From an uncultured Alphaproteobacteria bacterium (GTDB taxonomy: Bacteria > Pseudomonadota > Alphaproteobacteria > Rhizobiales > Xanthobacteraceae), in NCBI GenBank assembly GCA_963828475.1, contig CAWHFN010000012.1, positions 25,439-89,438 of the forward strand: 64,000 nt of DNA, read 5' to 3'. Below the pieces are notes generated by a model, which saw only the letters and a program-made list of their open reading frames with translations, searched no databases and was not told the DNA's origin. Both the position numbers and the translations under genes were made by a program. This document shows, one piece after another, positions 39,021-43,343 of the stretch. Every line of letters starts with the position of its first letter. The stretch's first letter is position 1.

Positions 39021-40619
39021 TCACGCTGGCGCACCTGACTTCACCAGCTTGTAGACCACCGAATCCATCAGCGCCTGGAACGAGGCGTCGATGATATTGG
39101 GCGAGACGCCGACCGTGATCCAGCTCTCGCCGTTCTCGTCTTCGCTCTCGATCAGGACGCGCGTCACCGCTTCGGTGCCGCCATTGAGGATACGCACGCG
39201 GTAATCGATCAGCTTCAGACCCTCGATGTATTTCTGGTACTTGCCGAGGTCCTTGCGCAGGGCGACATCGAGCGCGTTGACCGGACCGTTGCCTTCCGCC
39301 GCCGAGATCAGCCGCTCGCCGGCAACGTCGACCTTGACCACCGCGAGCGCCACGGTGACGCGCTGGCCGTTGGCGTTGGAGCGCTGCTCGACATTGACGT
39401 CGAACTGCTCGACCTTGAAATATTCGGGCACCCGGCCGAGCGTACGCCGCGCCAGGAGGTCGAACGAGGCGTTGGCGGATTCATAGGCGTAGCCCGCCGC
39501 TTCCCGCTCCTTCAACTCCTCGACCAGGCGCGCCAGCTTCGGATCGCTCTTCTCGTAAGCAATGCCGGCGCGGTCGAGTTCCGCCATCACGTTGGAGCGG
39601 CCGGCCTGATCTGACACCAGCACCTTGCGATGGTTGCCGACGGATTCCGGCAAGACATGCTCGTAAGTTTGCGGATCCTTCATGACCGCGGAGGCATGAA
39701 TGCCGGTCTTGGTCACGAAGGCGCTTTCGCCAACATAGGCTGCATGGCGGTTCGGCGCGCGGTTCAGCATGTCGTCGAGCGTGCGCGACACCTTCATCAA
39801 TGTCGCCATCTTCTCCGCGGTGACGCCGATCTCGAAGGCGTCGGAGAATTCGTTCTTCAGGCTCAATGTCGGGATCAGCGAGCAGAGATTGGCGTTGCCG
39901 CAGCGCTCGCCGAGCCCATTCAGCGTGCCCTGGATCTGTCGCGCGCCCGCACGAACCGCGGCCAGCGAATTGGCGACCGCCTGCTCGGTGTCGTTATGGG
40001 CGTGGATGCCGACATGACTTCCCGGGATATGCTTGACCACAGCTCCCACGATGGTCTCGACCTCGTGCGGCATGGTGCCGCCATTGGTGTCGCACAGCAC
40101 CACCCAGCGCGCACCGGAATCATGGGCCGCCTTGGCGCAGGCCAGCGCGAAATCGGCGTTCTCCTTGTAACCGTCGAAGAAGTGCTCGCAATCGACCATC
40201 ACCTCGCGCCCCGCCGCCTTCGCAGCAACGACGCTGTCGCGGATCGAGGCGATGTTTTCTTCGTTGGTGGTCTCCAGCGCCACCCGCACCTGGTAGGCCG
40301 AGGACTTGGCGACGAAGCAGATCGCATCGGCTTTGGCCTCGATCAGCGCCGCAAGCCCCGGGTCGTTCGAGGCCGAACGGCCGGGACGGCGGGTCATGCC
40401 GAACGCGGTGAATTTGGCGCTCTCGAACCTTGGCTTGTCCGAAAAGAATTCGGTGTCGGTCGGATTGGCGCCGGGATAGCCGCCCTCGACATAGTCGATG
40501 CCGAGCTCGTCGAGCATCTGCGCGATGATCTGCTTGTCCTGCAGCGTGAAATCGACGCCGTTGGTCTGTGCGCCGTCGCGCAGCGTGGTGTCGAACAGAT
40601 AGAGGCGTTCGCGGCTCAT
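39021..40619 (-). CDS. cimA: Citramalate synthase
   Basis: DTTLRDGAQ, DCEHFFDG, CDTNGG, GIHAHND, GERCGNAN and C-terminal regulatory domain (GNGPVNALD). Confidence 0.9.
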   Translation of the reverse strand: MSRERLYLFDTTLRDGAQTNGVDFTLQDKQIIAQMLDELGIDYVEGGYPGANPTDTEFFSDKPRFESAKFTAFGMTRRPGRSASNDPGLAALIEAKADAICFVAKSSAYQVRVALETTNEENIASIRDSVVAAKAAGREVMVDCEHFFDGYKENADFALACAKAAHDSGARWVVLCDTNGGTMPHEVETIVGAVVKHIPGSHVGIHAHNDTEQAVANSLAAVRAGARQIQGTLNGLGERCGNANLCSLIPTLSLKNEFSDAFEIGVTAEKMATLMKVSRTLDDMLNRAPNRHAAYVGESAFVTKTGIHASAVMKDPQTYEHVLPESVGNHRKVLVSDQAGRSNVMAELDRAGIAYEKSDPKLARLVEELKEREAAGYAYESANASFDLLARRTLGRVPEYFKVEQFDVNVEQRSNANGQRVTVALAVVKVDVAGERLISAAEGNGPVNALDVALRKDLGKYQKYIEGLKLIDYRVRILNGGTEAVTRVLIESEDENGESWITVGVSPNIIDASFQALMDSVVYKLVKSGAPA

Positions 40620-41128
40620 GACGGAACTCCCGGCGCGGCATTGTCAGCCAGCGTCTTCTGCATCGTGGTGTTGGCGAGCCATTCGCCGTTGAGGGTGACG
40701 GTGTTGCGCTGTTTGGCGGCATAGCCGCGTTTCTTGAAGAAAGGCTCCGCGGTATCGCTGGCGTCGACCGTCAGGGATTTCGCACCGCGGGCGCCCGCCA
40801 GCTTTTCCAGCGCATCCACCAGCATCGACGCAACGCCCTGCCCGGCCACGCTCGGATGGACGAACAGCATGTCGATGTGGTCAGCGCCCTTGAGCGAGGC
40901 GAAGCCGACCGGCGCATTCTGAATGGTCGCGATCAGCGTCAATTGTCCGGCGAGCTTCTTGCCGAACGCCTCCTCGTCCTCGGCGGCCGCAGCCCAGGCT
41001 TCCTGCTGCGCCTCGCTGTAATCGTCGCCGGTCAACTCCTCGATGCTGGCAACGAAGATCGCCGCCAGCATCGGAACATCCGCCGGCAAAAACGGCCGCA
41101 AGCCGGGTTTGGGCAATGCCTGTCCCAT
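40616..41128 (-). CDS. GNAT N-acetyltransferase
   Basis: LFVHPSVAGQGVASML and FFKKRGY; stop overlaps the cimA start. Confidence 0.85.
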   Translation of the reverse strand: MGQALPKPGLRPFLPADVPMLAAIFVASIEELTGDDYSEAQQEAWAAAAEDEEAFGKKLAGQLTLIATIQNAPVGFASLKGADHIDMLFVHPSVAGQGVASMLVDALEKLAGARGAKSLTVDASDTAEPFFKKRGYAAKQRNTVTLNGEWLANTTMQKTLADNAAPGVPS

Positions 41129-41242
41129 CGCGTCAAAATACTCCGAACAGTCTCAAGGCCAGCACGACCGCGGCAACAATCAGCGCCCATTTGATGAAGA
41201 TGTAATAACGCCAGTGTTTCGGGAACGGCGTATCGGGACGGG

Positions 41243-42724
41243 TCATCGCGCGATCTCCCAAGTGGTTACGGGTTTTCCGTCGGCATCCTTGCCGTCCTTG
41301 ATGGCAACGCCCATGGCGGCGAGTTCGTCGCGGATACGATCGGACTCCTTGAAATCCTTTCGCGCTCGCGCTGCCGCACGAGACTTCAGCAGATCGTCCA
41401 CCTTCGCAGGATCAAGACCTTTCTCTCTCGCAGCCTCTTCTTGGAACGCTCGCTTAATGTCGCCTCTTACGTCGTCACTGCGAACATGATCGATTGCCTT
41501 CTCGAAGCCCAACAATTGCAAAGAACCTGCCAATTCATTTGCGGCATCAGCGGGATGATCGGTAGAGCGAGCGGCATTCGCTAGACGATACAGTTCGGTT
41601 AATACCGCCGACGTATTTAGGTCATCCGCAAGGGCATTGAGAACTCCTTCAGATGGCTTCATCTTCAATCGATTGGCAGCACTAGCCGCTTGCCGAAGTT
41701 TACCGTAACTCATCTCGGACTCGGCAAGTCCTGCGTCAGTCCAGTCGAGAGGCTGCCGATAGTGCGTTCTCAACATGTTGAAGCGCAAAATCTCGCCCCA
41801 TCGCGGATCTTTGGGACGGCCACTTAAAAGATCCCGGATCGTGAAGAAGTTGCCGAGCGACTTCGACATCTTCTCGCTTTCGAGCTGCAGGAAGCCGTTG
41901 TGCATCCAGACATTCGCCATGCGGTCGGAATGAAAGGCGCAGCAGGTCTGCGCGAGTTCGTTCTCATGGTGCGGGAACACCAGGTCGATGCCGCCGCCAT
42001 GAATGTCGAACTTTTCGCCGAGATGCTTCCAGGCCATCGCCGAGCATTCGATGTGCCAGCCGGGGCGCCCCTCCACCTTGATGCCCGCGGGCGACGGCCA
42101 CGACGGCTCGCCCGGCTTCGACGGCTTCCAGAGCACGAAATCGGTGTTGTGGCGCTTGTAGGGCGCGACGTCGACGCGGGCGCCCGCGATCATCTCGTCG
42201 AGCGAGCGTTTCGACAGCGCGCCGTAGCGCGGCATCACGGAATTGGCTTCGTTCATTGCCTGCGGCGAGAACAGTACGTGGCCCTCGGCGACATAGGCAA
42301 AGCCGCCGGCAACCAGCTTCTCGATGATCGCGCGCATCTCCGGGATATGCTCGGTCGCGCGCGGTTGTACCGTCGGCGCCAGGCAGCCGAGCGCGGTGAC
42401 GTCGTCCTGATACTGCCGATAGGTCTCTTCGGTAACCTTGCGGATCGCCTCGTTCAGGGGCACGCCGGGATAGTCGCGCGCGGCGCGCACGTTGATCTTG
42501 TCGTCGACGTCGGTGATGTTGCGAACGTACTTTACATGGCCGGCGCCATAGCGATGGCGCAGCACGCGGAACAGCACGTCGAACACGATCGCCGCGCGAC
42601 CGTTGCCGATATGGGCGAAGTCGTAGACCGTCGGCCCGCAGGCATACATGCCGACATTGTTTGGATCGAGCGGCACAAACGGCCGCTTCTCCTTCGTCAA
42701 CGTATCGTAAAGTCGCAGTTCCAT
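41243..42724 (-). CDS. cysS: Cysteine--tRNA ligase
   Basis: [15 protein letters not shown] (HIGH), [23 protein letters not shown] and KMSKS. Confidence 0.97.
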
Positions 42725-42798
42725 GGAAAACCCATCCGTTGCGGCCGGGCGTCCAGTGATCTCGGTTGGGAGAAAAGACGGCCTCAGCCAGCGAATCG

Positions 42799-42849
42799 CT
42801 AGCTAATAATCTCGCGGCAAATGCTGCAGATGGCGAGGAGACCGTTCAT
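42799..42849 (-). CDS. Putative leader peptide [16 protein letters not shown] upstream of cysS
   Basis: ATG…TAG, 16 codons with 2 Cys and 4 Ile; preceded by TTGACG-N18-AATGGT; followed by a hairpin and a U-rich tract. Confidence 0.55.
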
Positions 42850-43037
42850 GGTTCCACCATTGCGGTATCGGGGGAGCGGCGTCAAGCCTTGCTCGTGCCC
42901 GATTTGGAGCCGATCAGGCCGCCGAACCCCGCCGTAACCCTGCCATTCGCTGCCGCCCCGCTGCCTCATGGTTAATCATTATTAACACTTTGGGCCTATT
43001 CCTGAGGGCGGTTCCTCCTCCCCTGCCGGTGTCCTCC

Positions 43038-43343
43038 ATGCGATCCTCCGCACTCCTCGCCTGTGCCTTCCTGCTCGCCGCCTCGGCCGCTGCCGCCGAC
43101 AGCCGCGTTTTCATCATTGCCAACCAGGCCGATGGTTACGGCGTGGACGAATGCCTCGCCAGGGGCGAAAAATGCGGCGCCCACGCCGCCCGCTCCTATT
43201 GCCAGTCACGGGAATTTGCACAGGCCACCGCCTACCGCCGCGTCGATCCCGACGAGGTCACCGGCGCGGTTCCGAAAGACGGCGGCGATAGATGCTCCGG
43301 CCACGGCTGCCGCGAATACGTCGCCATCACCTGCCAGCGCTAG
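43038..43343 (+). CDS. Small secreted protein with six conserved-looking cysteines
   Basis: Signal peptide (…AAAA/DS); mature domain YGVDECL…CG…YC…C…C…ITCQR. Confidence 0.75.
   Translation: MRSSALLACAFLLAASAAAADSRVFIIANQADGYGVDECLARGEKCGAHAARSYCQSREFAQATAYRRVDPDEVTGAVPKDGGDRCSGHGCREYVAITCQR

Follow-up and report, generated by a model that had tools for sequence, protein, structure and literature searches.

In Firmicutes, cysS, the gene for cysteinyl-tRNA synthetase, is usually controlled by a T-box, and we know of no experimentally studied mechanism of cysS control in Alphaproteobacteria. The closest system described to date is uORFC-8-2, a motif built around an upstream open reading frame (uORF), of which the published account lists 145 examples, all of them preceding cysS and confined to Rhodobacterales (Brewer et al. 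2021, RNA Biol 18:2417, PMC8632094). According to the same account, the motif carries tandem Cys codons, usually at positions 14-15, forms two stems and in rare cases a three-stem junction, ends in a U run, and has been interpreted, as a prediction, as ribosome-mediated attenuation (PMC8632094). The element considered here lies in a 64,000-nucleotide stretch of DNA from an uncultured alphaproteobacterium (Rhizobiales, Xanthobacteraceae; GenBank assembly GCA_963828475.1, contig CAWHFN010000012.1, positions 25,439 to 89,438), referred to below as the window, and consists of a short leader ORF and its surrounding RNA structure, located on the minus strand within a 313-nt divergent intergenic region between the start of cysS (42724) and a gene beginning at 43038. 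This leader is very probably a ribosome-mediated attenuator that reads Ile and Cys codons and controls an operon extending from cysS to cimA, the gene for citramalate synthase. In the literature, neither a cysS leader in this order nor a cysS-cimA operon or a link of this kind to Ile was found, and the supplements of a Sinorhizobium meliloti ribosome profiling (Ribo-seq) paper contained no cysS leader peptide. A statement in the initial annotation of this DNA, made from the sequence alone, that no cysS attenuator had been described in this group thus stands for the order but not more widely, as uORFC-8-2 has been published for Rhodobacterales (PMC8632094). An Rfam scan of the window (E up to 10) returned chance-level matches only, for example Bp1_781 with 16 bits against a threshold of 80, and hence no match to a T-box or to another known leader family, and a simple scan of the window called neither a promoter nor a terminator at the leader.

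Comparison with the described systems reveals both shared and distinct features (coordinates in Table 1). As far as the published account of uORFC-8-2 extends, both elements lie directly upstream of cysS in Alphaproteobacteria and have a conserved AUG, with the Cys codons (there mostly UGC) in the first stem; here both Cys codons lie in the hairpin P2, the hairpin P3 comes next, and CUUUUCUC follows the helix P1. On the other hand, the present leader is spread through the order of the window, apparently another one, for which the initial annotation names the family Bradyrhizobiaceae, and occurs there in at least 25 families. Its Cys codons are at positions 8 and 11 (CxxC) and not in tandem at 14-15, Ile codons predominate, the three-way junction is regularly present, and there is a competing helix downstream; no link to cimA is known to have been described for the Rhodobacterales motif (PMC8632094). 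The classical attenuators (thrL for Thr and Ile, ilvL for Leu, Val and Ile, and trpL) also contain a short ORF in which codons for the operon's end products are over-represented, and they likewise show mutually exclusive 1:2, 2:3 and 3:4 pairings, a stop codon at the 1:2 hairpin and a preference for rare codons. Leader-peptide attenuators of Proteobacteria that respond to several amino acids are reportedly treated in work by Vitreschak and colleagues from 2004. In contrast to the classical systems, the present locus joins unrelated pathways, a tRNA synthetase for Cys and a biosynthetic enzyme for Ile, its ORF is apparently leaderless, the 5' end of the RNA is linked to the switch through an additional helix, P1, and the 3:4 hairpin in this genus covers the ribosome-binding site without forming a clear terminator. 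Leaderless polycysteine uORFs are said to exist in mycobacteria, in a 2020 study by Canestrari and colleagues. In Deinococcus deserti, cysS is preceded by a leaderless leader of 10 codons, two of them for Cys, the start of which was mapped by differential RNA sequencing (dRNA-seq; de Groot et al. 2014, PMC4007540). The putative start of the present transcript similarly coincides with the start codon of a short ORF that contains Cys codons and precedes a gene related to cysteine, but the phyla are unrelated, there is no detectable sequence relationship, and the deinococcal and mycobacterial leaders possess Cys codons only. The present version differs from the known systems in its taxon, in carrying codons for two amino acids, in its obligatory three-way junction, in the competing helix further downstream and in its operon logic; relative to the initial annotation, the link to cimA, the covarying three-way junction and the competing 2:3 helix are new.

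The ORF described in the initial annotation, 16 codons long with two TGC codons in a CxxC arrangement, is present in the window and reads ATG AAC GGT CTC CTC GCC ATC TGC AGC ATT TGC CGC GAG ATT ATT AGC TAG. To determine its distribution, cysS loci were collected from 40 relatives and a covariance model, termed R1, was built from the leader. Among the genus relatives the 81-nt leader is 89-99% identical while their CysS proteins are only 56-82% identical, and matches to R1 were obtained in 124 of 401 genomes of the order, always in one copy per genome and, in 30 out of 30 fetched, directly upstream of cysS. The degree of identity, the single copy and the constant position at cysS argue that the match does not arise by chance. 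With 50 further R1 matches the collection comprised 79 homologues, representing 73 distinct ORFs from 25 families. The start codon occupies the same model position in all 79 (78 ATG and one GTG), and the distinct ORFs, of 13-26 codons with a median of 16, keep the position of the stop and are free of in-frame stops. Read in frame, they devote 28.7% of their codons to Ile and 11.3% to Cys, as opposed to 1.2% or less in the other two frames; every one of them contains at least three Ile codons and 72 contain at least one Cys codon, whereas the third codon before the stop is Ile without exception, being ATT in 68. Synonymous variation between ATT and ATC and between TGC and TGT is found among the ORFs, ATT outnumbers ATC by 2:1 although the genomes are GC-rich, and indels stay in frame, as illustrated by a 3-nt deletion in two genus members. 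In the versions from other families the N-termini have diverged and the length varies, and the spacing of the Cys residues changes from CxxC to CC, CxC or a single C (the tandem CC of families f4, f51 and f59 being at positions other than 14-15), while the Cys and Ile codons are kept and the stop remains inside a GCUAGC...GCUGGC hairpin. Since nothing but the start, the position of the stop and the codons for Ile and Cys is maintained, the latter appear to be regulatory codons and not part of a folded peptide or of an untranslated RNA, and the leader is conserved as an ORF with putative regulatory codons. The resemblance to ribosome-mediated attenuation that the initial annotation had pointed out, and that it had made dependent on conservation of the ORF and its Cys codons, is supported by this comparison, in which at least 25 families retain the ORF in the same frame together with its codons for Cys (and Ile).

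Outside the order, R1 matched only one further family, and the DNA preceding cysS in 80 other genomes of the class contained Ile/Cys leaders of like build in a few more families, together with leaders encoding RCC-type peptides. The latter (families f193 and f94), which were not recovered by R1, probably correspond to uORFC-8-2. Further apparent classes of uORF that precede cysS elsewhere among these bacteria (ICY-ending, CxCxC and LLPLIGRER) were rejected, since they resemble the conserved C-terminus of the upstream gene, read in or out of frame. In many other alphaproteobacteria, among them six loci from other orders, the gene upstream of cysS ends in ...GPEL..LLPLIGRER.L.RL immediately before its stop, which we take to be the C-terminus of glutamyl-tRNA synthetase (gltX) and which would make a gltX-cysS-cimA row; out-of-frame readings of this C-terminus mimic short Cys-containing uORFs and could mislead scans.

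The ORF is embedded in a predicted RNA structure that involves its own codons. Folding of the window sequence with RNAfold yields a three-way junction (P1, P2 and P3), a small additional hairpin (P4) and a further hairpin over the Shine-Dalgarno sequence and AUG of cysS. Two structural claims of the initial annotation could be confirmed here: the stop codon lies within a hairpin, its UAG being located in the 5' arm of AGCUAGCG-AUU-CGCUGGCU, which has 8 bp and reaches 10 bp (42806-42784) once the U-A and U.G extensions are counted, and codons 2-4 (ACGGUCUC) are complementary to GAGGCCGU, which is followed by CUUUUCUC, a pairing that covaries. Covariation was counted on 85 leaders aligned by fitting to R1, in which 84.4% of the cells of P1-P4 are paired, compared with 71.4% after shuffling and 28-48% in slid controls; double-sided changes occur in 26 of the 28 pairs, and compensatory cells number 299, compared with 103 +/- 11 after shuffling. 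When the sequences were aligned with MAFFT, blind to structure, P3 is paired in 93% of cells versus 13-47% when slid. The predicted junction is accordingly supported by covariation.

Downstream of the junction, the RNA can adopt a second set of pairings, designated by segments as in classical attenuators, with P3 as the 1:2 hairpin. The 3' side of the junction (segment 2) can pair with a downstream segment 3, and this 2:3 pairing is found at the same offset in nearly every family. Cognate 2:3 pairs are 1.7-2.0 kcal/mol better than cross-family combinations (Wilcoxon, 25 families, p=0.002 and 3e-5), and on the structure-blind MAFFT alignment 71% of the cells of the 2:3 helix pair compared with 33-47% when slid. 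An anchor-based count of the first base of the tract after P1 against its partner in segment 3 gave 27 U-A, 14 C-G and 7 U-G combinations and 5 mismatches, and in family f59 all three strands have changed in concert (GCUAGU / ACUGGC / GUCAGU). Segment 3 may alternatively pair with the Shine-Dalgarno region of cysS, forming a 3:4 hairpin of -13.5 kcal/mol in the window; a CCCC/GGGGA-like 3:4 pairing is present in most families, although cognate combinations are only weakly preferred there (p=0.05 and 0.007). The 2:3 helix excludes P3 on the one side and the 3:4 hairpin on the other, so that the modelled layout is the classical 1:2 / 2:3 / 3:4 arrangement with an extra helix, P1, tying the 5' end of the RNA to segment 2. 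A clear hairpin with a U run after segment 3, far from the AUG, was observed only in some families (f47, f28 and f51), suggesting that the expression platform differs between lineages.

The position of the transcription start bears directly on how such a leader may be read. The promoter elements given in the initial annotation, TTGACG-N18-AATGGT-N6-ATG on the minus strand, are all correct to the base, and the proposal that their geometry places the start on the ATG holds in that this geometry is conserved and a Shine-Dalgarno sequence is lacking, except that the -10 element is better placed one base upstream. The family consensus, cTTgac-N17-cAt...gcC-ATG, assigns it to CAATGG (42862-42857), with a 17-nt spacer leading to C-1/A+1 at the ATG. 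This C-1/A+1 pair, which is conserved across the family, is typical of transcription starts, and a Shine-Dalgarno-like 4-mer precedes the leader ORF in only 3 of the 73 distinct homologues. Because of the placement of TTGAC and the near-absence of Shine-Dalgarno sequences, the leader transcript is probably leaderless, starting at or next to the A of the ATG. In Bradyrhizobium japonicum, 192 transcription starts fall exactly at start codons (PMC4842269), and leaderless messages are therefore normal in this group.

Citramalate synthase is the first enzyme of the threonine-independent route to isoleucine, and the presence of its gene in the same operon accounts for the Ile codons, which are the best conserved feature of the leader. 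Wherever both the leader and cimA were listed, in 44 of 44 genomes from many families, cimA follows the leader in the same orientation at a distance of 1.6-4.6 kb. Close spacing of the genes, with an ATGA overlap and 4-nt overlaps, supports their linkage, and cysS, a small ORF, a GNAT acetyltransferase gene and cimA probably form one operon headed by the leader, whose two over-represented codon types each have a counterpart among the products of the operon. The small ORF, of 37 codons and seemingly unannotated, is kept in sequence downstream of cysS in many genus relatives, and its product, for which no Pfam match was found, looks like a translationally coupled small membrane protein. In the rest of the class, 31 of the 33 genomes that have cimA carry it next to cysS and in the same direction; the association of Ile richness with cimA cannot discriminate when the adjacency is nearly class-wide, and this comparison was dropped as a discriminating test. 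In the family to which the window belongs, two genera (g19 and g20) have no cimA match above the cut-off, and g20 keeps the leader, with a peptide ending in EIKS or EITS.

Table 1. Position of the cysS leader, its predicted RNA elements and the genes downstream, in window coordinates.
Feature	Position	Strand	Basis or remark
-35 box TTGACG	42880..42885	-	TTGAC 35-37 nt before ATG in 63/73 distinct homologues; consensus cTTgac
Putative -10 region CAATGGT	42856..42862	-	family consensus cAt at -13..-11
Leader ORF, probably leaderless	42799..42849	-	start position and frame-specific Ile/Cys content
Leader Cys codons (8 and 11)	42826-42828, 42817-42819	-	
Leader Ile codons	42829-42831, 42820-42822, 42808-42810, 42805-42807	-	
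P1 5' arm ACGGUCUC (codons 2-4)	42838..42845	-	P1 cells 82-96% paired; double-sided changes in every P1 pair
P1 3' arm GAGGCCGU	42778..42785	-	fold and covariation
P2 hairpin with both Cys codons, CUCGC...GCGAG, inner GCA/UGC	42811..42837	-	helices 4-7 69-80% paired, compensatory changes
P3 hairpin AGCUAGCG-AUU-CGCUGGCU, UAG in 5' arm (segment 1 : segment 2)	42786..42804	-	92-93% paired
Pyrimidine/U tract CUUUUCUC directly after P1, possible termination point	42770..42777	-	
P4 small hairpin UCUC-loop-GAGA, variable loop	42760..42773	-	helix 10: 77% paired, 4/4 pairs double-sided
Segment 2 CGCUGGCUGAGGCCGUCUU: P3 3' arm, linker, P1 3' arm, first tract bases	42775..42793	-	can pair with segment 3
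Segment 3 UGGACGCCCGGCCGCA	42740..42755	-	pairs with segment 2 or with Shine-Dalgarno region
Segment 4, 3' arm of 3:4 hairpin; Shine-Dalgarno-like GGAUGGG (42730-42736), cysS AUG (42722-42724)	42722..42739	-	
cysS, cysteinyl-tRNA synthetase, 493 aa	41243..42724	-	
37-codon ORF, small hydrophobic protein	41133..41246	-	ATG overlaps cysS stop (ATGA)
GNAT acetyltransferase gene	40616..41128	-	
cimA, citramalate synthase	39021..40619	-	TIGR00977, 622.6 bits, cut-off 450; 4-nt overlap with GNAT gene

Taken together, these elements suggest a mechanism that can be considered probable as a whole, with less assurance than the attenuator assignment itself, given that the start, the stalling and the choice of output are deduced. 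Transcription would begin with the A of the leader's start codon or a neighbouring base, and a ribosome would translate the 16 codons. When charged tRNA-Ile and tRNA-Cys are plentiful, this ribosome would exit at the UAG and the three-way junction would close, with P1 formed by codons 2-4 and GAGGCCGU, P2 containing the Cys codons and P3 containing the stop. In this closed state P1 would abut CUUUUCUC, a possible point of intrinsic termination, and in longer transcripts segment 3 (UGGACGCCCGGCC) would form a hairpin with the Shine-Dalgarno sequence and AUG of cysS, turning the operon off. A ribosome stalled at the Ile codons near the stop would mask the 5' arm of P3, and one stalled at the Cys codons would prevent closure of P1; either stall would free segment 2 to pair with segment 3, whereupon P1 could no longer act as a terminator stem, the ribosome-binding site would be released and the operon would be on. 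The output of the switch may thus be termination, translation initiation or both. The translational branch recalls the attenuation of ermC and cat, where segment 2, once freed by a stalled ribosome, likewise sequesters segment 3 and thereby exposes the Shine-Dalgarno sequence of the gene downstream; stalling in those systems, in contrast, depends on drug and peptide and not on uncharged tRNA, and the translational arm of the present leader is weakly supported.

Ribosome stalling was also simulated by folding. As masking the footprint alone lets P1 pair around the ribosome, which is sterically unrealistic, the leader was refolded using only the RNA located 3' of the ribosome. The free leader of the window adopts the junction and the 3:4 hairpin (-47.7 kcal/mol), whereas placing Ile14 or Ile15 in the A site makes the RNA beyond the ribosome fold into the 2:3 helix (-23.7 kcal/mol), the 3:4 hairpin is lost and the unpaired probability of the Shine-Dalgarno sequence rises from 0.21 to about 0.4. 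With the ribosome at Cys11, P3 remains intact and the 3' arm of P1 captures the start of segment 3.

A number of observations weigh against this scheme. Equilibrium folding of leaders from 22 families did not reveal a consistent opening of the Shine-Dalgarno sequence on stalling, the values being 0.41 free, 0.42 with an Ile stall and 0.40 with a Cys stall (not significant), and the weight placed on the translational arm was lowered for this reason. Three genus relatives (L004, L031 and L015) carry inserts of 100-165 nt between segment 3 and the Shine-Dalgarno sequence with the leader intact, so that in them the 3:4 output cannot work as drawn. Moreover, segment 3 is transcribed after the U tract, and the 2:3 helix therefore cannot antiterminate a terminator formed by P1. 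As regards the structure, the covariation counts come from an alignment that was itself fitted to the model, and the single-sequence fold z-score of the window is only -2.2. As regards termination, P1 with CUUUUCUC is terminator-like but multi-branched, a three-way junction being an unusual terminator, and was not called by the simple scan, and the tract after P1 in other families is only moderately U-rich, mostly with 4-6 U of 9 and in some with 2-3. The inserts themselves are long perfect inverted repeats resembling repetitive extragenic palindromes (REP) or miniature inverted-repeat transposable elements (MITE), e.g. CACCGGACCGGCTCTCGCATTCGCA...TGCGAATGCGAGAGCCGGTCCGGTG, and are situated about 160-240 nt upstream of cysS in L004, about 100-200 nt in L031 and likewise in L015.

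A more specific version of the proposed mechanism can be put forward tentatively and with rather low confidence, namely that the leader senses ribosome occupancy in a single pass and with two inputs, and that its main output in this genus is the release of the cysS ribosome-binding site, while a terminator platform is used in other families. With a leaderless uORF whose first codons serve as a strand of P1, only the first, co-transcriptional ribosome would read the leader in this single-pass version. If it holds true, the leader would represent translational attenuation at hungry codons, with a logic like that of ermC and a swapping of platforms as in riboswitches; we know of no proteobacterial leader sensing amino acids for which translational attenuation of this type has been demonstrated.

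Among the other explanations, the one that best withstands the evidence, although it is unlikely, is pure classical transcription attenuation, as drawn in the initial annotation, in which regulation acts solely on the junction closed by P1 and followed by CUUUUCUC, P1 and hence termination are prevented wherever on the uORF a ribosome sits, and the 2:3 and 3:4 pairings have no role. P1 is indeed an 8-bp GC-rich stem that covaries and has CUUUUCUC directly after it; this tract is kept in 7 out of 7 distinct sequences of family f1 (genera g1 and g20) and is unchanged in the genus sequences shown, the relatives with inserts of 100-165 nt after segment 3 keep the leader, which fits a decision taken upstream, and the Rhodobacterales cysS motif, as published, likewise ends in a U run (PMC8632094). 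On the other hand, some families have no more than 2-3 U in the tail, the first bases of which show covariation with segment 3, so that pairing explains the composition of the tract and U-richness alone does not. Classical attenuation also leaves the order-wide conservation of segment 3 and of the 2:3 pairing unexplained, multi-branched terminators are atypical, and P1 was not flagged by the scan.

The same tract admits a second explanation, Rho-dependent attenuation, according to which the closed state would expose a C/U-rich, G-poor tract to Rho and the stalled state would bury it in the 2:3 helix. Purines are nearly absent from the tract following P1 in all families, and the tract is single-stranded in the closed fold and base-paired in the alternative one, a logic known from the mgtA and corA leaders of enteric bacteria, but with about 14 nt it is far below typical Rho loading sites, which makes this explanation quite improbable. 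More improbable still is that the leader ORF encodes a functional small peptide, either a CxxC metal- or redox-binding peptide or a trans-acting one like peTrpL, and is not a codon sensor. Conservation within the genus and the CxxC spacing would suit such a peptide, and trans functions of a leader peptide have been reported in S. meliloti (PMC7298713), yet across families the N-terminus, the length and the Cys spacing vary, and conservation is limited to the start, the position of the stop and the codons for Ile and Cys; the peptide could still act in trans besides serving as a sensor. Equally hard to credit is an untranslated structured RNA, a riboswitch or protein-binding leader in which the ORF is incidental, for although nucleotide conservation is strong (ATT third before the stop in 68 of 73) and the junction covaries, the Ile and Cys content is frame-specific, the start is invariant, in-frame stops are absent, synonymous changes occur, indels keep the frame and no Rfam family matched.

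The remainder of the intergenic region contains a perfect palindrome, GTTAAT-N4-ATTAAC (42971-42986), located 86 nt upstream of the -35 box of cysS and about 50 nt upstream of the gene at 43038, and a near-identical GTTAA-N5/6-TTAAC is found at the equivalent place in five genus relatives. This palindrome is probably a transcription-factor site, perhaps for the divergent gene. The latter (43038-43343, plus strand) encodes a protein of 101 aa with a signal-peptide-like N-terminus and several Cys residues, for which neither a Pfam nor an NCBIfam match was obtained, and it adjoins the leader also in L004 and L015.

The leader offers a compact and testable form of cysS control in an order that includes nitrogen-fixing symbionts and model phototrophs, and it adds an unannotated, putatively translated ORF to these genomes. 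It also makes it possible to ask how a leaderless uORF, a three-way junction and alternative platforms, either a terminator or a hairpin over the ribosome-binding site, are combined. Finally, it points to an old and unexplained pairing of cysS with cimA, in which one leader appears to read the supply of both Cys and Ile, the products of unrelated pathways.

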